Source: Escherichia phage vB_EcoM_G2248
Sequence record: MK327932.1
Strand: one strand, 5' to 3'
Length of the DNA: 64,000 nucleotides
The notes beneath the pieces were generated by a model, which worked only from the letters and a program-made list of their open reading frames with translations, searched no databases and was not told the origin of the DNA. The position numbers were made by a program, and so were the translations under genes. Within the stretch, counting starts at the first letter, position 1. Each line of letters starts with the position of its first letter. Positions 2,804 through 62,376 of the stretch are shown here, piece after piece.

Positions 2804-2832
2804 ATTATGATATATCCCCGATCCAGTGTCAA
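2804..2832 (-). promoter_or_regulatory. sigma70-type early promoter cassette
   Basis: minus-sense TTGACA-N17-CATAAT; G/C-rich inverted repeat in the spacer; then CATCGAAA leader. Confidence 0.5.
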
Positions 2833-2839
2833 CAGATTT

Positions 2840-3139
2840 TTAATCTTTTTTCAGTGCGTCCATTACTCGCTCTGCGATCAGTTCTCGTAAGCACTGATAA
2901 CCATGATATTTGATGGCAATGTCACGCAGATCATTAACCAGTTCCCGTACTTCATGGTCTTTCAGATCGTCTCTGTATTTCGATTTAACCGTGTCTTTAG
3001 GTGGATTGTGGATAACCTGAAAACCTTGTTCTGCAATCACTGCGGCTTCGCGCTGGCGTTCATGCTGTACTGTATTTTTGATCAGGTCTGCTTCCATGAA
3101 CTTTGCCATACTCATCATCATGTTATTCTTTTTGCTCAT
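2840..3139 (-). CDS. hypothetical protein
   Basis: track ORF starts at TTG; internal ATG at 3137-3139 has GAGGA SD 8 nt upstream (MSKKNNMMMS...); promoter at 3174-3201. Confidence 0.5.
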   Translation of the reverse strand: MSKKNNMMMSMAKFMEADLIKNTVQHERQREAAVIAEQGFQVIHNPPKDTVKSKYRDDLKDHEVRELVNDLRDIAIKYHGYQCLRELIAERVMDALKKD

Positions 3140-3173
3140 TATTAAATCCTCATAAAAGAAAAGGGAGACTCCC

Positions 3174-3201
3174 ATTATAGAGAATCTCCCTTGTATGTCA
3201 A
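3174..3201 (-). promoter_or_regulatory. sigma70-type early promoter cassette
   Basis: TTGACA-N16-TATAAT followed by GGGAGTCTCCC palindrome. Confidence 0.5.
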
Positions 3202-3204
3202 GTG

Positions 3205-5028
3205 TTATGATTGCATCCAAATTTTGCGCTGATCTGCATCTTCACTATAGAGCAAATCGAATAGCTCTTTATAGTTTTCCGGTAACGTGATGATCTCCAT
3301 GACAGGATCGTTGATCACGCGATGATAGTCTGATTCTGTGAGCGATGCTAAACCTTTGATATATCGAATGTTGTAACCTTTGATATTATCTCGGTCGTTC
3401 TCGAAATCTTCTAGGTCATAATACCATCGAACATCATCACCTTTCTTTGGTTCCGCAATGATAATAGGTGTTTTGATAAACCGGATTCGTCCATCTTCGA
3501 ACAATTCAGGCCAACGTGCAAAGAAAGAGATCAGACTAGGTTTAATAGACCCGATCCCGTCAGTATCAGCGTCTGTCATAATCGCAATATTTTTGTATTG
3601 CATAACGTCCAGCGCATCAACACCAAATTGCAAACCAGTGATCGCCATGATGTTAAAAATTTCGGCGTTCTTAACGATCTTTGCCTCTGGTTGTTCCCAC
3701 GTTGTAAGAGTTTTACCTCGCAACGGGAAACCGCCATGTAAATCTTGATCACGTACAGAGATCAGATAGTTGATCGCGGAATCACCTTCCGTCAAAAACA
3801 GGGTAGTTTCTGCGTCAGTTCCAATAAGGTTAGCTTTAACGTGTTTTGCCACCTTAGCCCGTTTCGCTGCCTTTGCTGCCTTAGTCGCTGCCGCTTTATC
3901 TGCTGCCTCTTTGCGTGCCAGGACTACAGCAATAATAGGCATGATAATGTTTTCTTTCTTAGCAATGACTTTAGCCAGCTTTTTAAAATCCAGATCAATG
4001 TGTCGCTTGATATCACCAGTTGGGTTAGTCAAGCGTTCTTTTGTCTGTGAATCAAAACGAAGGTTAGGCAATTCACGAACAATAAGAATACAGGTCAATC
4101 CAGACTTAACCGCAGCTTTAGTAACATCAACCTTATATTCTTTCTTGATTCGTTTTACAATCTCTTCACAAAGATCATCTGTCACGTAGTCTACGTGTGT
4201 TCCCCCGTTTTTGGTAAACAGACCGTTAGCAAAGGATACTGATTTAAAACCTTCTCCCTCGACCGCCGGAACTAGGGCAAGTGAAAAGTTTTTATCTTCA
4301 ATGACAAACGGATCATCATTGTATAGTTTAGCATAATCCTTGAACTTGCTGGTTATCTTTTTGCCATTAAACTTAAACGTGATCTTAGGAAAGATTACAC
4401 TCAATGAATACATTCGATCGCAAATCACATCTGAAATTTCTTGTGACATGATCATACCTTCAAAATGATCGAAATCGGGGCAGAACGTAACCTTAGTTCC
4501 TTTCAGTTTTGACGGCTTAGATGACCAGCTAATATTTTCTGCACCATTGGTACATTGAACGGTCAGTTCATTCTCTCCGTCACACGTCACACCAGTAAAC
4601 CAGGACGAGAAAAATGATGTGAGCGCGCTTCCGATCCCATTCATACCCATAGTAACACGATTTGTATCATCAAAGTTAGACCCTGCTTTAGCTCGTGTCC
4701 ATGCAGCAACTGGTTGTGGAATCTGTTTCCCTTCTGGCGTCGTAACAATATGTTGCGGAATACCGCGACCATTATCTGTTACTGACACAATGTTATCTTT
4801 TATATCCACACTAATAACATTAGCGTACTCAAAATTAGTGCGGATCGCCTCGTCCACAGAATTGTCGATAATTTCATCAATAATTTTAACTAGACCGGGA
4901 ACGTATGAAACTTTGGTCCATTTTCCAAATAGGAAACGATTGTGTGATTCATAAGTCGTTGACCCGATGTACATTGAAGGTCTCTTAAGACAGTGAGCGC
5001 GATCATCCAACAGCAAAAATTCAGACAT
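3205..5028 (-). CDS. 39: DNA topoisomerase II large (ATPase) subunit, gp39 with gp60-equivalent C-terminus fused
   Basis: 607 aa; GyrB-type GHKL ATPase motifs (DNGRGIP, GLHG-like) and TOPRIM-like region; length matches T2-type uninterrupted 39 rather than split T4 39+60. Confidence 0.9.
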   Translation of the reverse strand: MSEFLLLDDRAHCLKRPSMYIGSTTYESHNRFLFGKWTKVSYVPGLVKIIDEIIDNSVDEAIRTNFEYANVISVDIKDNIVSVTDNGRGIPQHIVTTPEGKQIPQPVAAWTRAKAGSNFDDTNRVTMGMNGIGSALTSFFSSWFTGVTCDGENELTVQCTNGAENISWSSKPSKLKGTKVTFCPDFDHFEGMIMSQEISDVICDRMYSLSVIFPKITFKFNGKKITSKFKDYAKLYNDDPFVIEDKNFSLALVPAVEGEGFKSVSFANGLFTKNGGTHVDYVTDDLCEEIVKRIKKEYKVDVTKAAVKSGLTCILIVRELPNLRFDSQTKERLTNPTGDIKRHIDLDFKKLAKVIAKKENIIMPIIAVVLARKEAADKAAATKAAKAAKRAKVAKHVKANLIGTDAETTLFLTEGDSAINYLISVRDQDLHGGFPLRGKTLTTWEQPEAKIVKNAEIFNIMAITGLQFGVDALDVMQYKNIAIMTDADTDGIGSIKPSLISFFARWPELFEDGRIRFIKTPIIIAEPKKGDDVRWYYDLEDFENDRDNIKGYNIRYIKGLASLTESDYHRVINDPVMEIITLPENYKELFDLLYSEDADQRKIWMQS

Positions 5029-5034
5029 ATTATA

Positions 5035-5778
5035 TCATTCTCCGTCAGTTCGTTTCAGGTATTCCAATGCCGCATATAATCTTTGAGGATCGTCTTTGAA
5101 CATCCCTAATCCGGCATTACATTTTCCACAAAGAACACCTCTTATCTTACCAGTCTTATGATTATGGTCAAGATGTTTCCACTTTTGGCGTTTTCTCACG
5201 CCGCATCGTTCATTTATGAATTTTACACCGCATATCTCGCAATTGTCAACTCTGCCTAAAATTTCTAACGCTTCTCTTTTTGATATTTTTATACCATTTT
5301 CGGCATGATGATATGGCCTATCTAGTTCTCGCTCTCGCTTCTCAAACAATCGACACTCATCAGAACAATACTTTTGAGATACGTTTATTGCAACAAATGG
5401 TTTACCACATTTAGCGCATTCTCGTTCAATCTTTATGTTTTGTGCCTGGTCCAACGATGCGCAACGAGAACAGCAAAATTTATGATAGCCTTTAGAGTAT
5501 GTATGATAATTTACAGGATTTGGGCATCTTGCACATTTAACTATTCCTGTTATTCCGTGGCGCAATCTATAAACAGCCTCGTTATATGGTTGTTGATTTC
5601 TGAGACCTCCATTACAGAACTTAAACTCATTCCTTATAATCTGAAATTCAGCAGGATACAATTTTTCCATTTCTGGAATTTTATTTTCTTTAAAAAGATT
5701 TGAGTTTAGTCTATTTCCGCTTTTCGCCTCCAGAACATCAACAATAAACTTTTTGATGTTCACTTTTTCTCTCTCCAA
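5035..5778 (-). CDS. HNH endonuclease of the Endo VII type with N-terminal zinc-ribbon repeats (probable homing endonuclease)
   Basis: C-terminal HLDHNHKTGKIRGVLCGKCNAGLG matches the T4 endonuclease VII catalytic signature; several CxxC...CxxC ribbons upstream; locally AT-rich. Confidence 0.65.
   Translation of the reverse strand: MEREKVNIKKFIVDVLEAKSGNRLNSNLFKENKIPEMEKLYPAEFQIIRNEFKFCNGGLRNQQPYNEAVYRLRHGITGIVKCARCPNPVNYHTYSKGYHKFCCSRCASLDQAQNIKIERECAKCGKPFVAINVSQKYCSDECRLFEKRERELDRPYHHAENGIKISKREALEILGRVDNCEICGVKFINERCGVRKRQKWKHLDHNHKTGKIRGVLCGKCNAGLGMFKDDPQRLYAALEYLKRTDGE
5035..5778 (-). mobile_element. free-standing HNH homing-endonuclease-like gene inserted between topoisomerase and dexA
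   Basis: endonuclease signature plus compositional shift; no T4 counterpart at this position. Confidence 0.45.
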
Positions 5779-5866
5779 TACATAACATAACCATAACTTA
5801 CTGCAACCGCCACAAAGACGGCTGCAACAATCATATTAAAAATTGAGTGATTGTCAAGTATATGAC

Positions 5867-9623: not shown

Positions 9624-9652
9624 ATTATTGTCTATCTGGTTTGTGCTGTCAA
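9624..9652 (-). promoter_or_regulatory. sigma70-type early promoter
   Basis: TTGACA-N17-AATAAT upstream of GGAGAATCAATTATG. Confidence 0.45.
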
Positions 9653-10162: not shown

Positions 10163-10192
10163 AAAAAAGCCTCCAATCTTTCGACGGGAGGC
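10163..10192 (-). terminator. rho-independent terminator-like hairpin that also sequesters the SD of the Mod-like gene
   Basis: minus-sense GCCUCC-loop-GGAGGC followed by U6, ending 8 nt before the ATG at 10157-10159. Confidence 0.45.
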
Positions 10193-10228
10193 ATAATAAA
10201 ACCATGATAGAGTAGTGTCAACTAATTT

Positions 10229-10753
10229 TTAGTAGCCGCGTTCTTGACGGGCGAAGTTTTCAGCATTTTTCAGATAGTACAGAATAAAGAGTTCTTGAGC
10301 GTCAATACCCAGCGGGATCATCTTTGACAGAATGAAGTGGATCGCGTCCACAAATTCAAATTTCACTTCAAGCTGATCTTCTGGTGACAGTTCAGAGAAT
10401 TTACGCGCTCGCGCTTCCCCGTGGTTCTTTTTCCACATTTTCCAGATTGCACTTGCATCTTTACCATTGGACATTCCACCCAGCGATGTGTAAAGCTCTC
10501 GTGTTTCGTCTGCGATAGCGTCATCCATCCGTTGCATCCAATCCAGCATTTCACCGCAAGTCTCTAGCTTAGTTGGATTTGGGACCCAATCAAATTTTTC
10601 GGATAGTGCAACCTGCAAACCAGTTTGCATTTCTAGCATCACCTGAAACGGATCTTTACCTTCTGCAATCGCGTGATGATATGCGGCGATAGCCGCGTTA
10701 ATATCTTTTTCGTTAACCAGACCAGCACAAGAATTAAATTCTGACATATTCAC
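10229..10753 (-). CDS. 56: dCTPase/dUTPase (MazG-like), gp56
   Basis: 174 aa; matches my recollection of T4 gp56, notably the C-terminal LYYLKNAENFARQERGY. Confidence 0.8.
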   Translation of the reverse strand: MNMSEFNSCAGLVNEKDINAAIAAYHHAIAEGKDPFQVMLEMQTGLQVALSEKFDWVPNPTKLETCGEMLDWMQRMDDAIADETRELYTSLGGMSNGKDASAIWKMWKKNHGEARARKFSELSPEDQLEVKFEFVDAIHFILSKMIPLGIDAQELFILYYLKNAENFARQERGY

Positions 10754-10761
10754 CTCATTAA

Positions 10762-11790
10762 TTAAAATTTACAATATTTCATAAACCGCATTTTAGCCAT
10801 CAGACCTTGTACGGTGTTCTCTTTGATATATTCCATGATCTGGTCGCGTGTAGCGCCCTCGTCCTGAATCATGGCGTTAACGTCTTTAGAATGCCACGGG
10901 CAACGGTCCCACAATACAATCTTTTCCCCTGCATTGATAAACTTTTCCAGTCGGTGCATTGTATCGGCAGACCGTGGTTCCGCATCAAGTACAAACACTC
11001 GCTGATCAGGGAAAGGAATTTCATCTAATCCCAAAGTACCGCCAGTAATTGCACACCCGTTATCAATAAACAATGAATCGATCGGACCTTCTAAGAAATA
11101 CACTGGCCTACTCGGATCGGCGCGTTCAAGACCATAGACCTTACTCGCTAACTCATGAGTTTTAATCGTCATATATTTGGTCTTTCCGTAATCCTTTCTC
11201 AATGCTCGCCCCTGAATGGATTCTATCTTGTTCTCGCGGTTAAAGATAGGAATCACTAAACGCGGTTCAGGTTGTGGATTCTTGAAAGTATCAGCCTTAA
11301 TGTGATTTGCTACCTTTTGCCATTCTCTCGTGAAATACAGAAGATCCCATTTATCGTGGGGAATGCAACGATCACTGACATACTTTATTATAGGATGATT
11401 AGCCGGAAGAGTATCTAATCTCTCGCAGAAAGGCAATGTTTGCACTTTCTTAATCTCCGGCTTTTCTACCTTTTTAAGTGGCTTGAACGTGGTGTTCTTG
11501 TGGTCGCCTTGTTCCTTCCGTCGTTCCATAAGCCATTCCCTGAATAGGTCCGGCTTATACTGTTTGAGAAATTCACCTAACGGCTGATTGTAGTTACAGT
11601 TGAAACAACCACAACGCAAACTATCTTTATAGGTATAGATACGGAATCGCGCTTGAGTATGATTTTTCTTTGAGTCACCGCAGATCGGACAACTACAGAC
11701 CAGCGTAAATGAGCTAGTATGCAACCGTTTAAAATTTCGTTCGCCGTATATGGCTTTTTCCGCTATTTCATAATCTGCGTAGTAAATCAT
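10762..11790 (-). CDS. 61: DNA primase gp61
   Basis: 342 aa (T4 gp61 length); N-terminal zinc-binding CxxC...CxxC; position upstream of 41. Confidence 0.9.
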   Translation of the reverse strand: MIYYADYEIAEKAIYGERNFKRLHTSSFTLVCSCPICGDSKKNHTQARFRIYTYKDSLRCGCFNCNYNQPLGEFLKQYKPDLFREWLMERRKEQGDHKNTTFKPLKKVEKPEIKKVQTLPFCERLDTLPANHPIIKYVSDRCIPHDKWDLLYFTREWQKVANHIKADTFKNPQPEPRLVIPIFNRENKIESIQGRALRKDYGKTKYMTIKTHELASKVYGLERADPSRPVYFLEGPIDSLFIDNGCAITGGTLGLDEIPFPDQRVFVLDAEPRSADTMHRLEKFINAGEKIVLWDRCPWHSKDVNAMIQDEGATRDQIMEYIKENTVQGLMAKMRFMKYCKF

Positions 11791-15144: not shown

Positions 15145-15166
15145 AATATAATCCTCTCTAGATATG

Positions 15167-16281: not shown

Positions 16282-16509
16282 CTATTCAGTTAATCCGTAA
16301 TACTTTAATTGCTTCATTGTTATTCGATCTTTGTAGTGCTCTTGAATTAACTTTTTCATCGCATCAACATCGATCGTCACAAATACTTCGTTGCTGTGAT
16401 TTCCGTGAACTTTCTTGAAATGCTCTATGCCTTCCTCACGTTCACGTTTAATCTTTTCAATGTCTCTCATAGTATATTTCTCACGTTGGCGGGTATCGTC
16501 ACACAACAC
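16282..16509 (-). CDS. hypothetical protein
   Basis: 75-aa ORF; the only ORF between uvsX and 43. Confidence 0.4.
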   Translation of the reverse strand: MLCDDTRQREKYTMRDIEKIKREREEGIEHFKKVHGNHSNEVFVTIDVDAMKKLIQEHYKDRITMKQLKYYGLTE

Positions 16510-16531
16510 CCGCCATTATACACACTTTATC

Positions 16532-19240
16532 TTAAATGTCAAACAGGTCAGTAAGCGATGCAACTTTTTCGTATTGCAGCTTTGCAGCCGTGGTAATGTT
16601 CTCCAGCGGTTTGACGAAAGTCTTATTAAACAACAAAGGCCAGTCTAACCACTTCAACACTTCTGATTCAATTTCTGGCGGAATACGAGTACCAGACAAC
16701 CAACCAAAACAGATTTCTCCAAACGGATTTCGATCTTTAAGCGGTACAATCATAACCTTCTCGCCTTCACGAATCGGATCTAGTCCGAATTTTCTGGCAT
16801 TACGATTATAACACAATACACTCTTAACCGCATACGGACAACCCTTAATCGGATACCCGTTTGAATCGCTGTATTTCTGTAGGTTGTTTGCCGATGATAC
16901 CGCAGCAACCTCAAGATAGTCAAGTTTTCGAAACTCTTGCTCAAAAATACCGTAGTATTCCTGCAATGACTCTTCCCCTTCCTGCAACATACGGCGAATA
17001 CATTCTTTCAGTGATTTCTGACATGCTTTAGGGGTGGAGCTACGTTGCGTTTCCAAGCCCATGATTTTTAGCTTAGGTTCAGCAAAGCGCGTTCCTTCCA
17101 TATCCCAAACATTAAGAGCATAACGCTTTTTGCCAGTCCAGAATCCACCGATACCCGCAGATTTCAACGGAGGACCAGCAATTGCCTCGCGGTCCATAAA
17201 CATCAAGTGCTCGTAGTTGTTCATGTACTCGCATAACTCGCGATATCCCTTGTCGATAATAGGTTCCATTCGATGTTTACCGAAATTATCAAGGAAGTCA
17301 ACAAGTTTTTCGGTATCGTCGAAACGGTCTTCCCCGCCAACCTTATCAATAACATTGTTAACCAGCACATAAACGGAGTCAGTATCACAATAACGAACAT
17401 ATGCAAAATCGGTTGTTCCGCAAAGATCGTTTAAGTATTCGTTAATCTTACGCTCAATCCACTGAATTGCAAGCTGACCGAACAGTGTGATCGCACTAGC
17501 GTTACGGAGATCATAAAAACGGAATTTAGGATTCCCCAACGCACCATAAAGGGAGTTGATCAAAACTTTTCGAGAAAGCTGGTTTGTATTGCACAAGATC
17601 GACTCGCCTTTACATTCTTCCAGCAATTTCTCTAAGGCATCTTTACTTAATTCAGAAAGCATCGATTTAAACGCTTCATCGAAGTCGTGACGCACTTCAA
17701 CGCTATAGCTAATGGTTCCCCCATAAACATGATTTTCATCGTGTAGAATCGCTTTACAGAGTTCAGCATTGCGATCACATGCCAACATCATGTTTTTGTA
17801 CTGCTTACGCTGATCGAATACCTTTTTAATCTCAATCGGTACGATACCATGAATATCTTTTCTATACATCCATCCGTTAGGCGAGCAAGAATACTCATCA
17901 CTCGGACGTGGTGCAGTTTTATTGATATACTCGTGCATCGGTGCAGCATCAAAAGATCCAGCGATTGTTTCAGGCGAAATGTTAACCTGTCGAATAATAG
18001 ATGGGTACAGACTTGTTAAGTCAAAGCTCATCATCCAACGGTAAGCATTCGGCACAGGTTCTTTTACGAATGCGCCTGGATACGTCTGCTTAGGCTGTAT
18101 CTTGTTCTCTGGTACTACTTTACCCTCAGCTTTCAGAGATCCGAAGATAATAGCATCCCATACTTTCATTGGGTTATAAACATGGTTAAATTTAATCTTT
18201 GCATAGAAACATAGGCTATACACCAGATCAATAAAACCACGCTTTTTATCAATCGCCAGCACACGGTCAACGTCGCCGATGTTATAATCTATGTAAAGTT
18301 GATGGTTGTCATCACGCAATTTCTTTAACGGACCATCATAATCAACCTTACCGATTCCGGTCTCATATTCAGCAACATAATCTAACGCATATGTTGGTTG
18401 AGTCGTAAAGCTAAATTTCTTGTACAGGTCAATATAATCAAGGCTTTCGATCCCCATGATCGTAAATGCTTCACGCTCGTTGCCAAAATCATCCTGTGAG
18501 ATTCGGGATTTAATCTTACCGCACGGGCTTAGACGGTTAGCGGTTCTACTTCCGAACTTATTACTGATACGTTTAATGATATACGGTATATCGAATGTTT
18601 CTGTGTTCCAGCCAGTGAAACCAACGGGTCGGTTTTCCTCAAAGAATCGGACGTATTCTAACAGCAATTCATCTTCTGTGTCATAGACGTTATAAACAAC
18701 GCGCTCTACAATATCAGGTCGAAGAATAGACTTGCTTGCTTCCCAGATTTCATCGTTTTTTCCTTTCAAATCAAATACAAAGAAACGATCATGTACGGAA
18801 TCATAATGCGTAATTGCATCGATAGGATATTTCGCTTCTTCTGGTTTAGGAAATTCTGGGGCAGTGACCTCGATATCAACCCATGCTACACGGATTTTAT
18901 TTCGGTCATATCGAATCTCTCCTTTATACGTATCGGACAGATAGGAGATGATAAAATCATCCATCCCTAGTGCCTCTTGCCCCATCTCCCCCATCTTTTT
19001 ACGCCATTTGTTGGCCTCGTTCATAGAGGGGAATTTTTTAGCAATGCAAGGCTTGCCATAGATATCTTTATAATTCGTCACCATACCAGGCGCGGCATGA
19101 TGAAATAAAGTTGGCGTATATTCAACGTAACGCTCTTGTTCTTGTCCAGCATCATCAATATAACGCTCGTAGATCTTATCACCCACTCGCTCACATGACA
19201 GAAAATACATAATATAAACTCCTTCACTTACGAAAGACAC
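16532..19240 (-). CDS. 43: family B DNA polymerase gp43
   Basis: 902 aa; exonuclease and polymerase motifs (DxE, YGDTDS-like CDTDSVYV, KxxxNSxYG) collinear with T4 gp43. Confidence 0.95.
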   Translation of the reverse strand: MSFVSEGVYIMYFLSCERVGDKIYERYIDDAGQEQERYVEYTPTLFHHAAPGMVTNYKDIYGKPCIAKKFPSMNEANKWRKKMGEMGQEALGMDDFIISYLSDTYKGEIRYDRNKIRVAWVDIEVTAPEFPKPEEAKYPIDAITHYDSVHDRFFVFDLKGKNDEIWEASKSILRPDIVERVVYNVYDTEDELLLEYVRFFEENRPVGFTGWNTETFDIPYIIKRISNKFGSRTANRLSPCGKIKSRISQDDFGNEREAFTIMGIESLDYIDLYKKFSFTTQPTYALDYVAEYETGIGKVDYDGPLKKLRDDNHQLYIDYNIGDVDRVLAIDKKRGFIDLVYSLCFYAKIKFNHVYNPMKVWDAIIFGSLKAEGKVVPENKIQPKQTYPGAFVKEPVPNAYRWMMSFDLTSLYPSIIRQVNISPETIAGSFDAAPMHEYINKTAPRPSDEYSCSPNGWMYRKDIHGIVPIEIKKVFDQRKQYKNMMLACDRNAELCKAILHDENHVYGGTISYSVEVRHDFDEAFKSMLSELSKDALEKLLEECKGESILCNTNQLSRKVLINSLYGALGNPKFRFYDLRNASAITLFGQLAIQWIERKINEYLNDLCGTTDFAYVRYCDTDSVYVLVNNVIDKVGGEDRFDDTEKLVDFLDNFGKHRMEPIIDKGYRELCEYMNNYEHLMFMDREAIAGPPLKSAGIGGFWTGKKRYALNVWDMEGTRFAEPKLKIMGLETQRSSTPKACQKSLKECIRRMLQEGEESLQEYYGIFEQEFRKLDYLEVAAVSSANNLQKYSDSNGYPIKGCPYAVKSVLCYNRNARKFGLDPIREGEKVMIVPLKDRNPFGEICFGWLSGTRIPPEIESEVLKWLDWPLLFNKTFVKPLENITTAAKLQYEKVASLTDLFDI

Positions 19241-19292
19241 TCATTATAGGGGAATCGACTTAGTTTGTCAATACCCCTATCTCATCAGTATC

Positions 19293-26059: not shown

Positions 26060-26088
26060 AGTATACCGGGGATTTCTCCCCGCGTCAA
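26060..26088 (-). promoter_or_regulatory. early promoter cassette with spacer palindrome
   Basis: TTGACG-CGGGGAGAAATCCCCGG-TATACT. Confidence 0.5.
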
Positions 26089-33508: not shown

Positions 33509-33537
33509 AGTATAGGGGATCTCGCGATCCCCGTCAA
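33509..33537 (-). promoter_or_regulatory. early promoter cassette with spacer palindrome
   Basis: TTGACG-GGGATCGCGAGATCCCC-TATACT. Confidence 0.5.
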
Positions 33538-34655: not shown

Positions 34656-34683
34656 ATTATACATTAGCTAATCATGTTGTCAA
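34656..34683 (-). promoter_or_regulatory. early promoter
   Basis: TTGACA-N16-TATAAT then CATCGAAAAC leader. Confidence 0.5.
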
Positions 34684-34695
34684 CACCCCAAAACG

Positions 34696-34720
34696 AAAAA
34701 GCCGACCCTTTCGGATCGGC
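34696..34720 (-). terminator. rho-independent terminator after nrdD
   Basis: hairpin GCCGAUCC-GAAAG-GGUCGGC + U-run, 6 nt after nrdD stop. Confidence 0.6.
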
Positions 34721-34726
34721 TAAAAA

Positions 34727-37129: not shown

Positions 37130-37159
37130 AATATAATCCTCTCGTTGTTAAGTGGGAGT

Positions 37160-37187
37160 ATTATAGCATACTCCCTTCGCATGTCAA
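37160..37187 (-). promoter_or_regulatory. early promoter cassette, stem-loop enclosing the -10
   Basis: TTGACA-N16-TATAAT with GGGAGTA...TACTCCC inverted repeat around the -10. Confidence 0.5.
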
Positions 37188-38362: not shown

Positions 38363-38393
38363 AATATAATCCTCTCGTTGTTTAGATGGGAGT

Positions 38394-38422
38394 ATCTTAC
38401 TACTCCCGTTTCATCATGTCAA
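38394..38422 (-). promoter_or_regulatory. early promoter cassette, stem-loop enclosing the -10
   Basis: TTGACA-N17-TAAGAT within GGGAGTAGTAAGATACTCCC. Confidence 0.5.
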
Positions 38423-39272: not shown

Positions 39273-39303
39273 TGTTGATTCTCCTTCTTGATTAGATGGG
39301 AGT

Positions 39304-39332
39304 ATTTTACTACTCCCATTTCATGTTGTCAA
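39304..39332 (-). promoter_or_regulatory. early promoter cassette, stem-loop enclosing the -10
   Basis: TTGACA-N17-TAAAAT within GGGAGTAGTAAAATACTCCC. Confidence 0.5.
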
Positions 39333-41367: not shown

Positions 41368-41377
41368 TATATAATCC

Positions 41378-42494: not shown

Positions 42495-42528
42495 AATATA
42501 ATCCTCACATCGTTCATTTGATGCGGTT

Positions 42529-42557
42529 ATTATAGGATAACCGCATTTTCATGTCAA
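42529..42557 (-). promoter_or_regulatory. early promoter cassette, stem-loop enclosing the -10
   Basis: TTGACA-N17-TATAAT within GCGGTTATCCTATAATAACCGC. Confidence 0.5.
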
Positions 42558-43203: not shown

Positions 43204-43232
43204 AGTATAGGGGATACGTGATCCCCTGTCAA
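43204..43232 (-). promoter_or_regulatory. early promoter cassette with spacer palindrome
   Basis: TTGACA-GGGGATCACGTATCCCC-TATACT then CATCAAAACGAAACAC leader. Confidence 0.55.
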
Positions 43233-45280: not shown

Positions 45281-45308
45281 ATTATACGGGGATTTCTCCC
45301 CGTGTCAA
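45281..45308 (-). promoter_or_regulatory. early promoter cassette with spacer palindrome
   Basis: TTGACA-CGGGGAGAAATCCCCG-TATAAT. Confidence 0.55.
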
Positions 45309-45533: not shown

Positions 45534-45572
45534 TTTTGATTCTCCTAGAAAGTGTCGTGTTTCGATGGGTGT

Positions 45573-45601
45573 ATTATGCAATAACACCGGATCGCTGTCA
45601 A
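45573..45601 (-). promoter_or_regulatory. early promoter
   Basis: TTGACA-N17-CATAAT then ACACCCATCGAAACACGAC leader and GGAGAATCAAAAATG. Confidence 0.55.
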
Positions 45602-46814: not shown

Positions 46815-46843
46815 ATTATGCTATACCCTATTCCGGTTGTCAA
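46815..46843 (-). promoter_or_regulatory. early promoter
   Basis: TTGACA-N17-CATAAT then CATCGACAA leader; just downstream of terminator 46856-46883. Confidence 0.5.
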
Positions 46844-46855
46844 CACCTAAAAACG

Positions 46856-46883
46856 AAAAAGCCACCCTTTCGGATGGCTTTTT
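46856..46883 (-). terminator. rho-independent terminator after the 714-aa gene
   Basis: hairpin AGCCAUCC-GAAA-GGGUGGCU flanked by A-run and U-run. Confidence 0.6.
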
Positions 46884-51143: not shown

Positions 51144-51552
51144 TATTAATGATTTCTTCTACACATTCCCACTCAAGGCCACCGATACCGCAACCGATTT
51201 TAGGAATATAGAAAGGCTGTATAGCACCTTCAAAAACATCATTGAGAGCCTCAAATCCTTTCAGGATAGCACCATATTCAGCATTTGGACCCGGTCGGAA
51301 TTGGGTATAGAGATTAACCCCGCACCAATTATAACCATTAACTTGATGCGTCCAGACACTAAACCCACCCAGCTTTTCGACCTTACCGCGAGAAGTTTGC
51401 TTGTCAATCTCTAACGCTTGCGGGAACTCTTTCGCGATCTTCGCAGCAATACCAGCGCCCATAGTATGAAAACAATTACAACCATGAATTAAATGACCTT
51501 TTCCTTGTTTAAACAGGGCGATGAGATCGCCCTTTACAGTATCAATAATCAT
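51097..51552 (-). CDS. macro domain protein (ADP-ribose binding/hydrolase fold)
   Basis: 151 aa; VKGDL...HGCNCFHTMGAGIAAKI and IPKIGCGIGGLEWE resemble macro-domain glycine-rich loops. Confidence 0.6.
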   Translation of the reverse strand: MIIDTVKGDLIALFKQGKGHLIHGCNCFHTMGAGIAAKIAKEFPQALEIDKQTSRGKVEKLGGFSVWTHQVNGYNWCGVNLYTQFRPGPNAEYGAILKGFEALNDVFEGAIQPFYIPKIGCGIGGLEWECVEEIINIATPDINIVVVEYDK

Positions 51553-51567
51553 AATATAAACCTCTCA

Positions 51568-51927
51568 TTAGTCACGGGAAGACAACCCAGCCATAAAACG
51601 GCTTAACAGTGTGTCGCGATAAGCAAAGCATAATTGCTTATCAGGGGCAGTATCACACAGGTTGCGTTTTGTTTTAGCAAAGCTGGCAATACTCAGATCC
51701 CATGCTCGATTTTTTCGTTTTTCGTCTCGACCTTGTTTGTATGCTTCATCAAGTTCGAGCGCGATAAAATCACTACACATGTTATCATCATCACAGAAAG
51801 TTTTAATGATCTTTTTGTTGATCTCAAATCCTTTGTATTCGAACTTTGGATAATGGCGCTCATTACTAGCAAGCGCACCAGCCGATAACATCATAGCAAT
51901 CATAGCAATTATTGTCAACTTTTTCAT
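51568..51927 (-). CDS. small secreted protein (signal peptide)
   Basis: 119 aa; N-terminal MKKLTIIAMIAMMLSAGALA. Confidence 0.5.
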   Translation of the reverse strand: MKKLTIIAMIAMMLSAGALASNERHYPKFEYKGFEINKKIIKTFCDDDNMCSDFIALELDEAYKQGRDEKRKNRAWDLSIASFAKTKRNLCDTAPDKQLCFAYRDTLLSRFMAGLSSRD

Positions 51928-52525: not shown

Positions 52526-52612
52526 TAATTTCTCCTGTTTGGCTTAACTTTCTGATTCCATAATATAGCCCTATCACCAGAAAGTCAAGCATTATTTTTA
52601 ACCAATTTTCCA

Positions 52613-53035
52613 TTATTGGTCTACCTTCAAAACAACCGCCGACATTTTACCCGCCAGTCGTTTTGGATTCTCTATAATCATTCGACAGCATAGACCGTGA
52701 TATGGCTTACCCTCTTCGATTAGATCTACTGTCATCCCGATCCACATGTTGCCGTCAGTAATTTCTAATCGATTAGGTCGGTCTTCCATTTTCAGGAAGT
52801 CGAAGATCTCCGGCAAACGAGTTTCTATCTTATTGAATAATTCCATTGTCTTATGTTCATCGATATGACGATCGGTTAGACGGTCGATCATATGCGGACT
52901 AAAGCGAATGAAAATATACTCACCGTAACCATCATTCAAGCACTTTTCTTTGATCTGCGCATTGGTTTTGCGCATTTCGGTTTCGAAGAATCTACGCAGC
53001 TTACTACGGCGAACATGTACGTTAATTGTTTCCAT
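52613..53035 (-). CDS. regB: RegB endoribonuclease
   Basis: start at internal ATG (METINVHVRRSKLRRFFE...) paralleling T4 RegB; RLEITDGN block. Confidence 0.6.
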   Translation of the reverse strand: METINVHVRRSKLRRFFETEMRKTNAQIKEKCLNDGYGEYIFIRFSPHMIDRLTDRHIDEHKTMELFNKIETRLPEIFDFLKMEDRPNRLEITDGNMWIGMTVDLIEEGKPYHGLCCRMIIENPKRLAGKMSAVVLKVDQ

Positions 53036-53039: not shown

Positions 53040-53375
53040 TTATCCTTTCTTAAACAAATTGCGAATCCAGTATACAAACGGGATTTCTTTAAACTTGAAT
53101 TTCTCTATAGTTAATTCTTTAGTAGCAAGATGAATACCATAAGCATCATGTGTCACGATATGCCATTTTCTATAGTCCAAATGTGAACAACCGTCTGGAT
53201 CTAGGTTAATAAGAGTTTCTCGCTCACTAGGATTATTTTTCCACAATTTTGTAATAGGATCGCACATAATTCGACCTAGCGTACCATGAATAATCTCACA
53301 ACGGTAAAGTTTTCCAGCAGTGAGATAGGCGCACCCGTCATAGTCGGTATAAACAAACACTTCTTTAATACTCAT
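53040..53375 (-). CDS. hypothetical protein (triplet family, CxHLD...W)
   Basis: track ORF overlaps promoter 53404-53432; ATG at 53373-53375 (MSIKEVF...). Confidence 0.45.
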   Translation of the reverse strand: MSIKEVFVYTDYDGCAYLTAGKLYRCEIIHGTLGRIMCDPITKLWKNNPSERETLINLDPDGCSHLDYRKWHIVTHDAYGIHLATKELTIEKFKFKEIPFVYWIRNLFKKG

Positions 53376-53403
53376 TTTAATACTCCTTTGTTTCGATGGG
53401 GGT

Positions 53404-53432
53404 ATATTACTACCCCCGTTTTGTTGTGTCAA
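53404..53432 (-). promoter_or_regulatory. early promoter cassette, stem-loop enclosing the -10
   Basis: TTGACA-N17-TAATAT within GGGGGTAGTAATATACCCCC. Confidence 0.5.
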
Positions 53433-53693
53433 CTACTTTTTCAAGATTTTTTTAATTGCGTTCCAAAGACCTTTATTCTCAGGTTGTTTTGGTTCTTCGA
53501 TCAGTGTCCATGTTCGACCGTCTAAGTGTGCACAATTTTTAAGACAAATAAAAATCTGGTGTCCCTTATCATCACGGATATAACCACTATTCGCAAATCT
53601 TTCATGTGGTGTATATTCATACAGTGTATTTGGTGTAATATACTTGCGGTTACTATAAGGTGTCATCACATACATCATGGTACTAACTCCCAA
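53433..53693 (-). CDS. hypothetical protein (triplet family)
   Basis: 86 aa; ...GYIRDDKGHQIFICLKNCAHLDGRTW. Confidence 0.45.
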   Translation of the reverse strand: MGVSTMMYVMTPYSNRKYITPNTLYEYTPHERFANSGYIRDDKGHQIFICLKNCAHLDGRTWTLIEEPKQPENKGLWNAIKKILKK

Positions 53694-53869
53694 CGATCAC
53701 CGCGAAGATGAGAACATCCACCATCAAGAAGTATCGTAATACGATAACCTATATCATCTTTGATGTAACCGATTGTCGGTGGATTTTCGTCGTCTCGTGC
53801 CGGGGTAAAATCATACATCTTTCCGGGCGTAATATCTTGTCCTTTATTACTATTGGTATAAACTTGCAT
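53675..53869 (-). CDS. hypothetical protein (triplet family)
   Basis: 64 aa; ...GYIKDDIGYRITILLDGGCSHLRGDRW. Confidence 0.45.
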   Translation of the reverse strand: MQVYTNSNKGQDITPGKMYDFTPARDDENPPTIGYIKDDIGYRITILLDGGCSHLRGDRWELVP

Positions 53870-53890
53870 TTTCTTAATCTCCTATATTAA

Positions 53891-54589
53891 CTAACCACGG
53901 GTATAGTGTTCCAGAACAACGGTCAGATGAATATATTCTAATAGATCTTTCCAAAAGTCAACATCTGGTTCTTCCGGCATACCGTTTTTCTTTGCCTCTT
54001 CACGCGCGAGTTTAACACGCTCGTAGAGATCTTTCAATTCTTCCCGCACATTATCAAAGGTTCTTTCTCCTAACTTACACGCTAAGATAGAAGAACGTCG
54101 CGCGAGCGGGAATTGTAGATCACCAGTTTGATAGATTTCAAGTAGCTGATAACCAACACGCAGAGCATGAGAAAGATCTTTCCAGTTACTGAAATACTTT
54201 TCAGATTTGGCTACCTGTTTCTTGAGATAACCAGACAAACCCCACATACCAACATGATAGAATTTATCGCGATGTGTTCGGATGTATTCCCATTCTCTGG
54301 AGGATTCGATCAACATGTTACTAGGCGCGTGCACCATATCAATAGCGCCGATATCACCTTTACATGCCAGATTGATAAACCGTTTTAGACTGAACATATT
54401 AACGTCAATATCGTCTTTGGTGTTCTTGATACCTTGACCGCTAGTGCTTTGGTCATAGTGTTCTTTCATCGATCCTAAGATAATTTCTTTCGCAGTCGGA
54501 ACAAAGATACCACGATAATCTTTATCGGAATTTTCAGTATCAAGGCCGTATAAGTGAGATCCGAAGACCATTTTAACCATTGTATGCAT
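53891..54589 (-). CDS. nucleotidyltransferase-fold protein (Pol-beta-like minimal NTase)
   Basis: 232 aa; hG[GS]x9-13DxD signature FGSHLYGLDTENSDKD, downstream acidic DIDV, helical C-terminal half. Confidence 0.5.
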   Translation of the reverse strand: MHTMVKMVFGSHLYGLDTENSDKDYRGIFVPTAKEIILGSMKEHYDQSTSGQGIKNTKDDIDVNMFSLKRFINLACKGDIGAIDMVHAPSNMLIESSREWEYIRTHRDKFYHVGMWGLSGYLKKQVAKSEKYFSNWKDLSHALRVGYQLLEIYQTGDLQFPLARRSSILACKLGERTFDNVREELKDLYERVKLAREEAKKNGMPEEPDVDFWKDLLEYIHLTVVLEHYTRG

Positions 54590-55226: not shown

Positions 55227-55718
55227 TTAGTTGATACCTAAGCCAATGAAAATAGGTTGGTCTTCTACATTACCCATCCCAACACTAAGTCGATTCAATT
55301 CTAAAAACTGCAATACGCTGTCAGTAAATCCGCGCATGGTAGTATCTAGGATAAAAATTGTTTTGTCAAGACTACGACCTCGCCATGTGATCGGATTCAG
55401 GAAAGTTCGGATCGACGTACAATCTACATCTGAAATATTTACATTTTCACCACGACCGCGATCTCGGATCGTTTTGGCATGTTCCCGCGTTGTTGAAACG
55501 ATAAAGACACTATAGCCTTTTCGCGTATAATGGTCATATAACTTGATTGTAGCGTCTGTATGCCCTGTCTGACGGCCTAAATTGATTGAGACAATGGAAT
55601 CTAGGTCATCAGCAAAATTGCGTCGCTTACGGCGTTCCATGATGCCATTTACAGCAGATACACACGCAGCATAAATCAAATCTTTACTTTCTAATTCTAA
55701 ATCAATGTCAATATTCAT
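55227..55718 (-). CDS. hypothetical protein
   Basis: ATG at 55716-55718 with GGAG SD (MNIDIDLELE...). Confidence 0.45.
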   Translation of the reverse strand: MNIDIDLELESKDLIYAACVSAVNGIMERRKRRNFADDLDSIVSINLGRQTGHTDATIKLYDHYTRKGYSVFIVSTTREHAKTIRDRGRGENVNISDVDCTSIRTFLNPITWRGRSLDKTIFILDTTMRGFTDSVLQFLELNRLSVGMGNVEDQPIFIGLGIN

Positions 55719-55780
55719 GGTAAAGTCTCCAGTGAACGGGGAGAGATCCTTAGATTGTCTCCCCATTGATGGTTAATATT

Positions 55781-56356
55781 TTATTTTGGATCTGGGAAAT
55801 TCAATAGAGCATATTCTCCATAAAATTTCCTAGCTGCATTATCATAAGCGATTGCAGCTTCGATTTCTGTGTCATATTGTCCAAGAACATGTCTTTGTAG
55901 GTTGACCATTATACTAGCTCTCCATTTCTTACGCAAATCCTTCCTGTTACACTTACTAACACCCTTATACACACTAGAAAACTTTTTAGACTTCTTCTTT
56001 CTATTATGTTGATTTTGCGCGTCGGTTGCCTCCCTAAGATTTGGAGGATTGTTATTAGCAGGATTACCGTCAATATGATCAATTAATCTAACTTGCGTCC
56101 CATGTTCTAGAAACCAAACAACCCTATGCACGAATAGATGAACTCTAGGAAGACCGTCATCTCTACTATGCCAAAATCTAAGATGACCATCTTTATTTGT
56201 TCTGACTTTAACTAAATCGCCGTGTTTATATCTACTCCCTAATGGTCGTCCTTTGATAGCTTTACTATCGACTCTATAATATAAGATACCCTCTATATGA
56301 GCATATCTAAGTTTTATCTCGTTTTGTAGGGATTCATCCCAATATTTAAAAGCCAT
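55781..56356 (-). CDS. HNH homing endonuclease with C-terminal AP2 DNA-binding domain
   Basis: 191 aa; HNH motif IDHIDGNPANNNPPNLREATDAQNQHN; AP2-like YKGVS...WRASI...YDNAARKFYGEYALLNFP; AT-rich. Confidence 0.75.
   Translation of the reverse strand: MAFKYWDESLQNEIKLRYAHIEGILYYRVDSKAIKGRPLGSRYKHGDLVKVRTNKDGHLRFWHSRDDGLPRVHLFVHRVVWFLEHGTQVRLIDHIDGNPANNNPPNLREATDAQNQHNRKKKSKKFSSVYKGVSKCNRKDLRKKWRASIMVNLQRHVLGQYDTEIEAAIAYDNAARKFYGEYALLNFPDPK
55781..56356 (-). mobile_element. free-standing HNH-AP2 homing endonuclease gene
   Basis: domain architecture typical of phage homing endonucleases; compositional shift; own SD and a hairpin upstream. Confidence 0.5.
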
Positions 56357-56401
56357 TTTATAATCCTCACAAAGCCAGCGATTAAGCTGGCTTGATTTTA
56401 G

Positions 56402-59344: not shown

Positions 59345-59386
59345 TTTGATACTCCTTAGTAGTTCGTGTTTCGTTTCGATGGGTGT

Positions 59387-59415
59387 ATTATGCTATACAC
59401 CCTCTCTCGTGTCAA
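59387..59415 (-). promoter_or_regulatory. early promoter
   Basis: TTGACA-N17-CATAAT then ACACCCATCGAAACGAAACAC leader. Confidence 0.55.
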
Positions 59416-60089: not shown

Positions 60090-60118
60090 ATTGTAGGGGA
60101 GTTATCCTCCCCTGTCAA
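60090..60118 (-). promoter_or_regulatory. early promoter cassette with spacer palindrome
   Basis: TTGACA-GGGGAGGATAACTCCCC-TACAAT. Confidence 0.55.
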
Positions 60119-60126
60119 CACTTTTA

Positions 60127-60358: not shown

Positions 60359-60387
60359 ATTATGCTATAGGCCGGATCTGGTGTCAA
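60359..60387 (-). promoter_or_regulatory. early promoter
   Basis: TTGACA-N17-CATAAT then ACACCCATCGAAACGAAACAC leader. Confidence 0.55.
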
Positions 60388-60415
60388 CAACTTTTTTAAA
60401 AAAATTTTAGGCAAT

Positions 60416-60439
60416 AAAAAAGCCACTCCGAAGAGTGGC
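60416..60439 (-). terminator. rho-independent terminator ending the structured RNA region
   Basis: hairpin GCCACUC-UUCG-GAGUGGC + U6. Confidence 0.6.
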
Positions 60440-60584
60440 TTATAGGGAAGGTAGCGAATCTTCCTTGTCTCCAACCTGCTAGCGGCCTAGCAAGTGAATG
60501 CTTTAGCGTACCGGATCGCCCATACGCTGCAATAAATGCGGCTAGGTGACGTCCAAATCATTCTAACCGCGCTGTCTTTAGTTC
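60416..60584 (-). ncRNA. candidate structured small RNA between a late-promoter motif and a terminator
   Basis: about 170 nt without convincing ORF; four consecutive hairpins (8-bp GCGGTTAG/CTAGCCGC, 6-bp AGCGTA/TACGCT, 8-bp CTTGCTAG/CTAGCAGG, 5-bp GGAAG/CTTCC) then terminator GCCACTC-CGAA-GAGTGGC + U-run; TATAAATA at 60590-60597 upstream. Confidence 0.35.
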
Positions 60585-60588
60585 ACTA

Positions 60589-60807
60589 TTATTTATATCG
60601 CTTTCTCTCGCGACGTTTTTGATCTTCTTCCTTGATAGAGTTAAATGCATCAAAAAGACACATGACACTAATAATAAACATAACCGTATTTTCTACGGTA
60701 TCCCACGGCTTCGCATCAGTACAGATCCCCCAAACGGTAAGAAATGCAAATAAGGCAGAAGAGATCACAAGAATGATACTTGCTAAAATATAAAAAGTCA
60801 TTTTCAT
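60589..60807 (-). CDS. small membrane protein
   Basis: 72 aa, hydrophobic N-terminus, basic C-terminus. Confidence 0.45.
   Translation of the reverse strand: MKMTFYILASIILVISSALFAFLTVWGICTDAKPWDTVENTVMFIISVMCLFDAFNSIKEEDQKRRERKRYK
60590..60597 (-). promoter_or_regulatory. candidate T4-type late promoter (TATAAATA)
   Basis: minus-sense TATAAATA overlapping the stop of ORF 60589-60807, directly upstream of the structured non-coding region. Confidence 0.35.
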
Positions 60808-61553: not shown

Positions 61554-61701
61554 CGAAGCATGTCACAACTGCATCGTTGACTTCCGCAAATTGTTGTGTT
61601 ACCCACTTAAGGTCAGAGCGAAACAATGTTCTATTAATAACAAATGTTTTACCGCTCTTATCCTTACCCATAAATTTTGCTTTAACCATATCAAATTCCA
61701 T
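61498..61701 (-). CDS. hypothetical protein
   Basis: 67-aa ORF. Confidence 0.4.
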   Translation of the reverse strand: MEFDMVKAKFMGKDKSGKTFVINRTLFRSDLKWVTQQFAEVNDAVVTCFVDDKKVFEIDRRGVSNDH

Positions 61702-61710
61702 ATTATCACC

Positions 61711-61869
61711 TTATTTGCTAATCGCTAAACCCAATCCGAAGAGAGCACCCGATGCTACAGTATACCCGAAAGTTTCAAATGCAGTAAAGATATCTAAGCC
61801 ACCAGCTAACAGAGTTGCAGTAAACAGAGTACCAGCTACGAACATAAAAGTTTTACCGATAAATTTCAT
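61711..61869 (-). CDS. small hydrophobic protein (52 aa)
   Basis: untracked ORF MKFIGKTFMFVAGTLFTATLLAGG...; GGAGAATCAAAATG start; promoter at 61901-61929. Confidence 0.4.
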   Translation of the reverse strand: MKFIGKTFMFVAGTLFTATLLAGGLDIFTAFETFGYTVASGALFGLGLAISK

Positions 61870-61900
61870 TTTGATTCTCCTTTCGTTTGTTTGTGGGGGT

Positions 61901-61929
61901 ATCTTACTACCCCCGTTTCATGTTGTCAA
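61901..61929 (-). promoter_or_regulatory. early promoter cassette, stem-loop enclosing the -10
   Basis: TTGACA-N17-TAAGAT within GGGGGTAGTAAGATACCCCC. Confidence 0.5.
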
Positions 61930-61935
61930 CTATTT

Positions 61936-62310
61936 TTAAGAATATTTTACTTCGTCTACAATGTCTTTCATGACATTGATTTCCATTCCGGTCAGAACAC
62001 GTTGGAACATGTGCTGCACATACGCTTTCAGGTATTCATTTGATGGCTTACTATCGAAAGTCTTTTTAGTGTAGTAGTCATCACCGAAAGCTACTGTAAT
62101 TACATTTTCGTCGTCGTTCCAAGCGATATAAGCAAATTTGCCGTTATCCCAGAAGCGAGCACTAATTGCTACTTTTGTTGAATCGAATCCTACTTCGCTG
62201 TGAGATTCAAGAACTACTTGCGTACCAGTTTCTTTATGAATGTAGTAGCGGGATACTAAGTCAAAGTTACGGGTGTAGTGACATTCGAATTTATCTTTAA
62301 ACATCATCAT
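61936..62310 (-). CDS. hypothetical protein
   Basis: track ORF overlaps promoter 62348-62376; ATG with GGAGAATCAAAATG gives MMMFKDKFECHYT... Confidence 0.5.
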   Translation of the reverse strand: MMMFKDKFECHYTRNFDLVSRYYIHKETGTQVVLESHSEVGFDSTKVAISARFWDNGKFAYIAWNDDENVITVAFGDDYYTKKTFDSKPSNEYLKAYVQHMFQRVLTGMEINVMKDIVDEVKYS

Positions 62311-62347
62311 TTTGATTCTCCTAAGTGTGTTTCGTTTCGATATGTGC

Positions 62348-62376
62348 ATTATGCTATAGTCGTTTATGGTTGTCAA
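62348..62376 (-). promoter_or_regulatory. early promoter
   Basis: TTGACA-N17-CATAAT then GCACATATCGAAACGAAACAC leader. Confidence 0.55.

Follow-up and report, generated by a model that had tools for sequence, protein, structure and literature searches.

The early region of Escherichia phage vB_EcoM_G2248 (sequence record MK327932.1) is punctuated by short intergenic cassettes in which a promoter of the host sigma-70 type is usually combined with a stem-loop. We analyzed a 64,000-nucleotide stretch of this genome, which we will term the window, and counted 25 intergenic cassettes at positions 2832 to 62376 (all intergenic regions of at least 25 nt were inspected). These cassettes are the promoter-early-stem-loop (PeSL) elements of a Krischvirus genome, and the element itself is already known. 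We consider it very likely (a probability of about 0.85) that each of them joins an early promoter for the host's sigma-70 to a stem-loop that insulates early transcription units from one another.

PeSL elements were defined and named in phages RB49 and phi1 (Arbiol, Comeau, Kutateladze, Adamia, and Krisch, 2010, Genome Biol Evol 2:140, PMC2839356). As published, an element consists of an A/T-rich tract, the sigma-70 hexamers, a stem-loop that is often polyG...polyC, a Shine-Dalgarno sequence, and a start codon. There are five possible places for the stem-loop, which can be within the spacer, overlap either the −35 or the −10, lie upstream, or follow the −10. Each genome has 51-52 PeSL, most of which precede ORFans in hyperplastic regions, and gene 43 is flanked on both sides. 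In lacZ fusions, wild-type PeSL206/205 had promoter activity and the stem-loop of PeSL211/210 had terminator activity; the elements that were tested in this way all lie outside our window. Mini-circles from RB49 and phi1 were also sequenced; their crossovers were in the loop, near the A/T tract, or in the interval from the −10 to the ATG (PMC2839356). Finally, the early promoter consensus of RB49 (C or T at −12, C-rich from −3 to −1, and A-rich from −40 to −44) was reported to agree with the mapping of 5' ends (Nolan et al., 2006, PMC1524935).

An earlier note on this DNA had likened the cassettes to the PeSL elements of RB49-type phages, and this identification holds, given the genus of the phage, the orthologous sites, and the match to the published anatomy. 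A 10-kb sample of the window matched 58 phage records, every one of them Krischvirus (RB49-like T4-type coliphages). The window is 99% identical in nucleotide sequence to vB_EcoM_G37-3 (G37-3) and 94-95% identical to RB49, phi1, and JSE. All 25 cassettes have positional orthologues in both RB49 and phi1; these are of the same type at 24 sites and of another type at one (45308). When one cassette was used as a BLAST query, it matched 566 places in 62 phage records (58 Krischvirus and, partially, 4 Cronobacter phages). The window, which opens with the stop codon of rIIA (the conventional genome origin), spans the leftward-transcribed early region, with all of the genes that could be called on the minus strand. 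Its G+C content is 40% throughout.

As the comparison set, we used 7 Krischvirus genomes from GenBank, which together with the genome of the window makes 8. Chained alignments related G37-3, RB49, and phi1 to the whole window and JSE, G2494, FL15, and ECD7 to its hyperplastic part. (An IMG/VR search for relatives of ORF113 led to a single contig, and the GenBank genomes were used instead.)

Excess of promoter motifs between genes

The motif TTGACA-N16-18-TANNNT has 31 matches in the window, all on the minus strand, versus an expectation of 2.94 and a maximum of 8 in 100 shuffles. A relaxed promoter model, which allowed up to one mismatch in the −35 and up to two in the −10, gave 106 matches on the minus strand and 31 on the plus strand, and shuffled sequences gave 38 ± 6. 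Also, in an unbiased search for repeats, it was the cassettes that accounted for the largest families of dispersed repeats in the window (D1-D5, D7, D9, D10, D14, and D18). The earlier note had described at least 20 stereotyped minus-strand cassettes between 2804 and 62376. Our count of intergenic copies agrees with this, and these limits are the end of the −10 of the first cassette and the start of the −35 of the last. The note had proposed a motif search for frequency and conservation beyond chance, and both are apparent: the motif exceeds the shuffles, and the hexamers are almost invariant in the 8 genomes.

Could this excess be a by-product of the base composition of the coding strand or of codon usage? 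The hexamer TTGACA alone occurs 59 times on one strand of the window and 6 times on the other, many of the matches lie inside genes, and our shuffles do not keep codon structure. Because of this strand skew and because of how the shuffles were made, the density of matches on the same strand is more telling. Under the relaxed model, there are 26 matches in 5.25 kb of intergenic DNA (4.95/kb) but only 80 in 58.7 kb of coding DNA (1.36/kb), which is a 3.6-fold difference. Furthermore, the intergenic copies are flanked by a stop codon and by a Shine-Dalgarno sequence with its ATG, and while the hexamers hardly vary among the 8 genomes, the adjacent spacers are 16% variable. Given the density, the intergenic framing, and the conservation of the hexamers, we rejected an origin in composition or codon usage, which has a negligible chance of being correct.

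Promoter-like sites are also found within genes on the minus strand (for example, at 260, 2218, 21297, 22102, and 23002). These sites are about twice as frequent as the shuffles predict, and they are without hairpins. Some of them correspond to a 'hypothetical early promoter' in the annotation of RB49 (upstream of gene 44, within gene 46, and within gene 41).

Anatomy of the cassettes

All 25 cassettes lie between called genes, with an upstream stop codon and a downstream Shine-Dalgarno sequence and ATG (Table 1). The stop codons are close by, within about 15 nt. The A+T content of the 20 nt before the −35 (−20 to −1) is 0.72, versus 0.60 for the window as background, and the consensus that leads into TTGACA is AAAA(A/G)TTG, with A at −5 in 20 of the 25 cassettes. 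The −35 is exactly TTGACA in 21 cassettes, TTGACG in 2, and TTGACT in 1. The spacers are 16-17 nt long, the −10 hexamers are within two mismatches of TATAAT (TATAAT itself in 7 copies, CATAAT in 6, and near variants in the remainder), and the orientation is that of the downstream gene. The −10 is usually followed by a C-rich 6-mer and then by CATC, a start motif that is present in about 14 cassettes; the A of CATC fits as the predicted start of transcription.

Many copies had also been described as being followed by a conserved leader and a stereotyped Shine-Dalgarno and start region. The second part of this description stands: GGAGAATCAAAATG has 5 exact copies and 12 within two mismatches, versus 1.1 expected (one of the exact copies, at 2584, is not behind any cassette). 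The first part was overstated, as the 21-nt leader ACACCCATCGAAACGAAACAC has 2 exact copies and 5 within three mismatches. As for location, 18 of the 25 cassettes precede ORFs that are hypothetical in the RB49 annotation, and gene 43 is bracketed by cassettes 19271 and 16542, in keeping with the proposed placement at hyperplastic genes.

Table 1. PeSL cassettes of the window, all on the minus strand. Hairpin classes: A, in the spacer; B, around the −10; C, canonical terminator just upstream; D, immediately downstream of the −10.
Cassette	Coordinates	Class	Elements	Location or remark
62376	62348..62413	C	terminator 62393-62413, TTGACA-17-CATAAT, leader GCACATATCGAAACGAAACAC, GGAGAATCAAAATG	
61929	61895..61929	B	TTGACA-17-TAAGAT; hairpin GGGGGTAGTAAGATACCCCC encloses the −10	
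60387	60359..60441	C	terminator GCCACTCTTCGGAGTGGC-T6 (60420-60441), A/T tract, TTGACA-17-CATAAT, exact 21-nt leader	
60118	60090..60118	A	TTGACA, spacer hairpin GGGGAGGATAACTCCCC, TACAAT	
59415	59381..59415	B	TTGACA-17-CATAAT; hairpin GGGTGTATAGCATAATACACCC	32-nt exact match to cassette 60387
53432	53398..53432	B	TTGACA-17-TAATAT; hairpin GGGGGTAGTAATATACCCCC	
52588	52560..52588		TTGACT-17-TATTAT; long hairpin spans the promoter	upstream of vs.1
46843	46815..46883	C	terminator 46856-46883, then TTGACA-17-CATAAT	
45601	45568..45601	B	TTGACA-17-CATAAT; weaker stem GGTGT/ACACC	
45308	45281..45308	A	TTGACA, CGGGGAGAAATCCCCG, TATAAT	
43232	43204..43232	A	TTGACA, GGGGATCACGTATCCCC, TATACT	
42557	42522..42557	B	TTGACA-17-TATAAT; hairpin GCGGTTATCCTATAATAACCGC	
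39332	39296..39332	B	TTGACA-17-TAAAAT; hairpin GGGAGTAGTAAAATACTCCC	
38422	38388..38422	B	TTGACA-17-TAAGAT; hairpin GGGAGTAGTAAGATACTCCC	frd.2 downstream
37187	37154..37187	B	TTGACA-16-TATAAT; hairpin GGGAGTATGCTATAATACTCCC	
34683	34656..34721	C	terminator (34700-34721), then TTGACA-16-TATAAT	terminator after nrdD
33537	33509..33537	A	TTGACG, GGGATCGCGAGATCCCC, TATACT	
26088	26060..26088	A	TTGACG, CGGGGAGAAATCCCCGG, TATACT	16-nt hairpin identity with cassette 45308
19271	19243..19277		TTGACA-17-TATAAT; weak GGGG...CCCC pairing over −35 and spacer	upstream of gene 43
16542	16488..16542	D	TTGACA-16-TATAAT, then directly a 12-bp hairpin	downstream of gene 43
10221	10169..10221	D	TTGACA-17-TATTAT; terminator-like hairpin GCCTCC...GGAGGC-T6	upstream of modB
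9652	9624..9652		TTGACA-17-AATAAT; no hairpin	upstream of srd
5857	5801..5857	D	TTGACA-16-TATGAT; downstream hairpin	least certain copy because of partial overlap with small ORFs
3201	3161..3201		TTGACA-16-TATAAT; 13-bp hairpin around the −10, then T-run	terminator-like
2832	2798..2832	B	TTGACA-17-CATAAT; hairpin GGGGATATATCATAATGTCCCC	one G.U pair

Stem-loops

A stem-loop is present in the spacer, around the −10, upstream, or downstream in 22 of the 25 cassettes. In 15 of them it is embedded in the promoter, either in the spacer (5 cassettes) or around the −10 (10 cassettes). This agrees with the claim that most copies have such a hairpin, and the hairpins that were quoted in support of it are all present (GGGGAGGATAACTCCCC at 60118, GGGGATCACGTATCCCC at 43232, and GGGAGTAGTAAGATACTCCC at 38422). 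Four cassettes have a canonical terminator, that is, a stem and a T-run, just upstream and have no embedded hairpin; in three more, a hairpin directly follows the −10. The other three are odd or lack a hairpin: pairing across the −35 is weak in 19271, the hairpin of 52588 is long, and 9652 has none.

The segment from −2 to +44 folds at −8 kcal/mol or below in 16 of the 25 cassettes, as compared to 25% of random 46-mers. The cassettes also fold more stably than do 70 promoter-like matches in coding sequence (Mann-Whitney p = 7e-4). The hairpins of the class C cassettes and of 10221 and 3201 qualify as canonical intrinsic terminators (5-8 T in the 9-nt tail). In cassette 10221, the Shine-Dalgarno sequence is within the 3' arm of the GCCTCC...GGAGGC hairpin.

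Two class B hairpins (53395-53420 and 61893-61916) pass the terminator rule if the plus (antisense) strand is read, since in that direction the A-rich spacer that precedes the stem becomes a T-run. We rejected the idea that the hairpins terminate antisense transcripts: no genes or promoters on the plus strand feed this region, and the wobble pairs favor the sense strand.

Selection on the stems

Variable columns were counted for each element in alignments of orthologous cassettes, which covered up to 8 genomes. Only 1 of 140 columns varies in the −35 hexamer and 1 of 144 in the −10 hexamer. The stems vary at 7 of 331 columns (2.1%), the loops at 15 of 63 (24%), and the spacer outside of stems at 36 of 222 (16%); the upstream and downstream flanks vary at 5.3% and 3.3% of columns. 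The stems are thus about 10-fold less variable than the loops and spacer combined (odds ratio 0.10, p = 5e-12), which argues that pairing is under selection and is not incidental. Among paralogous cassettes, the sequence of the stem differs while its pairing is kept (GGGGG/CCCCC, GGGAG/CTCCC, GGGTG/CACCC, and GCGGTT/AACCGC; also GGGGAT), which argues against a site for a sequence-specific protein.

The few changes within stems point to the sense strand. Of the 7 substitutions in stems, four are transitions that turn a pair into G.U when the sense strand is read, and A.C resulted in no case. Similarly, there are 11 native G.U pairs when the sense strand is folded versus 1 when the antisense strand is folded.

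No cassette combines an embedded hairpin with a canonical terminator upstream: embedded hairpins are present in none of the 4 cassettes that have such a terminator, as compared to 15 of the 21 cassettes without one (p = 0.017). An example is the pair of 60387, which has a terminator and no hairpin, and 59415, which has a hairpin and no terminator. These cassettes are identical over 32 nt across the −10, the discriminator, and the leader. Finally, the hairpin does not extend beyond the predicted +1, except where the start falls inside it (3201 and 10221). Given this position, the hairpin would form only in RNA that enters from upstream.

Because of the selection on the stems, the sense-strand bias of the G.U pairs, the exclusivity with terminators, and the position relative to +1, we favor a role for the hairpin at the level of RNA over one in tuning its own promoter. 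As a putative insulator, it would terminate or attenuate transcription or protect the 3' end. The earlier suggestion that the spacer hairpin modulates promoter strength is therefore not favored.

Recombination and indels

We scored indels of at least 40 nt between the window and the 7 relatives and found 14 indel loci, of which 7 are homing-endonuclease genes. In the window, these include a homing endonuclease of the Endonuclease_7 type (5035-5778, minus strand) and one with HNH_3 and AP2 domains (55781-56356, minus strand); ORF6 of G37-3 is also of the HNH_3 and AP2 type, and the remaining ones were identified by annotation. (In the relatives, homing-endonuclease genes lie at 3198-3761, 10275-11204, and 53328-53921 in G37-3 and at 36850-37371 and 55282-55812 in JSE; another is RB49p040.) Two of the homing-endonuclease insertions abut the 5' edge of the −35 exactly, at cassettes 3201 and 10221. 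We did not count these junctions as PeSL recombination, as the inserted genes are HNH homing endonucleases.

At just 1 of the 14 loci, the gene 38 module at 45308, does a junction that does not involve an endonuclease fall inside a cassette. Here, RB49, phi1, and JSE have a terminator-gene 38-terminator-promoter arrangement (about 910 nt, with a class C promoter) in place of a 38-nt class A core. The genomes are homologous again from +1 on, and the junction is between the −10 and +1. As the cassettes make up about one-fifth of the intergenic DNA, the 3 junctions among intergenic events are no excess over other intergenic sites.

There are also traces of exchange between cassettes. The class A hairpins of 45308 and 26088, which are 19 kb apart, share 16 identical nt. 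Other paralogues share TATAG before CATAAT, ACATGAAAC before the stem, or, in the case of 60387 and 59415, whose copies are 972 bp apart, the 32-nt exact match. These paralogues thus share sequence at positions that have no known function in the promoter, which implies that cassettes were copied or gene-converted.

The earlier note had viewed the cassettes as portable recombination modules. The junction inside cassette 45308 speaks for this view, but as there is only one such locus among 14, as compared to seven with homing endonucleases, the support from our data is weak. Recombination between cassettes does not account for most of the indels in this sample of 8 genomes. The idea of portable modules is nevertheless plausible, and it has been documented experimentally by others (PMC2839356).

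A model for the cassettes and its alternatives

We propose that each unit is a strong early promoter for the host's sigma-70, with an A/T-rich, UP-like tract, (G)TTGACA, a 16-17 nt spacer, the −10, a C-rich stretch from −6 to −1, and a CAT start. This promoter would be fused to a G/C-rich stem-loop, followed by the stereotyped leader and a GGAG Shine-Dalgarno sequence and ATG, and it would start a short early transcription unit. The stem-loop would lie wholly or mostly upstream of the +1 of its own promoter, and so only read-through RNA from the preceding unit would contain it. Most likely, it terminates or attenuates this incoming transcription or protects the 3' end. In this way, neighboring small early genes would be insulated from each other with very little intergenic DNA between them. 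The homologies between cassettes (20-32 nt exact and 45-80 nt imperfect) might incidentally let phage recombination swap or delete gene modules. We infer that every copy in the window is active and that the hairpins without a U-tract terminate transcription.

Several observations weigh against this proposal. Of the 15 embedded hairpins, 14 (all but 3201) fail the terminator rule, with 0-4 T and no U-run on the sense strand, and terminator activity has been published for only one stem-loop, that of PeSL211/210, outside the window (PMC2839356). Most of the native G.U pairs are in the upstream or downstream hairpins of classes C and D. As most class A and class B stems are perfect palindromes, the argument for RNA over DNA rests on few events (the substitution tally is 4 to 0, p = 0.06). 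The role in recombination is thin as well: besides being confined to 1 of 14 indel loci, the swap at 45308 has the stop codon of the upstream gene as its left junction, with no second cassette.

The palindromes raise the question of whether the hairpin acts on DNA instead, as a cruciform, a supercoil-sensitive element, or a protein-binding palindrome that tunes the promoter around it, or as a target for a recombination protein. Arbiol et al. speculated about a recombination or binding protein for GGGG...CCCC (PMC2839356). Nearly all of the class A and B stems are perfect Watson-Crick palindromes that are placed exactly in the spacer or around the −10, and the 3' arm coincides with the C-rich stretch from −6 to −1, which is a promoter feature in RB49, RB69, and 44RR (PMC1524935). 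However, there is no common recognition sequence, as the stems of paralogues differ while their pairing is kept. The loops evolve freely (24% of columns are variable), substitutions and native wobble are tolerated only as G.U on the sense strand, and cassettes with a terminator do without the hairpin at an identical −10, discriminator, and leader (60387 versus 59415). An action on DNA therefore seems unlikely.

The other question is whether the cassettes drive the shuffling of modules at all. They could be independently maintained early promoters with adjacent transcript-end structures, and be linked to indels only because intergenic DNA tolerates insertions. This would account for the 7 indel loci whose homing endonucleases have their own mobility mechanism, for the 6 others that end outside of cassettes, and for a number of junctions that is no larger than expected from the cassettes' share of intergenic DNA. 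On the other hand, the sequence that paralogues share without a promoter function implies copying or gene conversion rather than convergence, the junction at 45308 is in the same zone as the published mini-circle crossovers, and mini-circles were sequenced in both RB49 and phi1 (PMC2839356). On balance, this second reading is less likely than not, but it is a serious possibility.

Our preferred model, a sigma-70 early promoter with an insulating stem-loop, could be sharpened. Specifically, the hairpins that are nested in promoters may be one-way RNA insulators, which stop or cap upstream transcripts without a U-tract and are selected at the level of RNA, while cassette recombination is minor relative to homing endonucleases in the plasticity of Krischvirus. 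We hold this version tentatively, at somewhat less than even odds. If true, it would revise two emphases of the published PeSL model.

The cassettes themselves have little value as a discovery, as PeSL date from 2010, when they were reported, named, and in part tested in phages that are 94-95% identical to this one. They are useful for annotation, as they mark 25 probable boundaries of early transcription units and the relatives are mostly annotated without promoters. They also lead to testable refinements of the published model: the roughly 10-fold stronger constraint on stems than on loops, the wobble on the sense strand, the exclusivity of hairpin and terminator, and homing endonucleases as half of the indels.

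Other features of the window

The T4 late-promoter consensus, TATAAATA, is present twice in the window, and neither copy is within the promoter core of a cassette. We rejected tandem early/late promoters on this basis. One of the copies (60590-60597, minus strand) is followed by about 170-175 nt that fold at −65 kcal/mol (z = −4.4). This structured stretch (60410-60597, minus strand) ends in the canonical terminator at 60420-60441 and falls in an unannotated 278-nt gap of RB49. It is almost invariant in 8 Krischvirus genomes, and indels of 1-2 nt would break its only ORF, of 24 codons. It may be a small structured RNA, so far unannotated, that is transcribed late. An Rfam search of the whole window, including this stretch, gave no match.

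An ORF of 714 codons (46893-49037, minus strand) has no Pfam domain. The 7 compared genomes lack it, apart from short remnants of its 5' and 3' ends. Full-length relatives (73-78% amino-acid identity) are found in just 5 other phages: Brandy, SSG23, SFHK24, UPWr_E1, and JK32.

Besides the GGAGAATCAAAATG type, about 10 gene starts have another stereotyped region for the initiation of translation, GAGGATTATATTATG (for example, 2107-2132, 15130-15157, 37127-37152, 38360-38385, 41362-41384, 42492-42517, 44935-44962, 51550-51575, and 56351-56373). The gene for the RegB nuclease is at 52613-53035, and starts of the GGAG type could be targets of this phage enzyme.

Comparison with known systems

Like lambdoid morons (Hendrix et al., 2000) and integron cassettes, the units in the window involve single genes that move together with a promoter and terminator of their own. 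However, morons have no conserved flanks, and integrons have an integrase and attC; neither description applies to the cassettes (PMC2839356). Some of them resemble Rho-independent terminators that lie beside promoters, as a G/C stem with a T-run is seen in 10221, in 3201, and in all four cassettes of class C. In contrast, the embedded hairpins other than 3201 (14 of 15) are without a U-tract and lie inside the promoter itself, and so are no canonical intrinsic terminators.

PeSL-like composite terminator/promoter motifs have also been described in T4/PST and KVP40/nt-1 (Comeau, Arbiol, and Krisch, 2014, PMC4122927), and these, together with the internal-protein loci of T-even phages, likewise combine an intergenic promoter with a stem-loop, lie in hyperplastic regions, and are proposed points of exchange. 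They are described as analogues, built on the early-promoter consensus of each phage, with stems that are weaker and more A/T-rich, whereas the cassettes in our window are sequence homologues of the RB49 type.

The closest counterparts are the PeSL of RB49 and phi1 themselves. The cassettes resemble them in anatomy, in the genome sites that they occupy (25 of 25), in their preference for small hypothetical early ORFs, and in the bracketing of gene 43, and the single junction of a swap falls in the interval from the −10 to the ATG, where published mini-circles also have crossovers. Two differences are that the indels here are mostly homing endonucleases and not the result of recombination between cassettes, and that site 45308 holds another type of cassette in the window. 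Neither is essential, and the window represents another isolate of the same genus.

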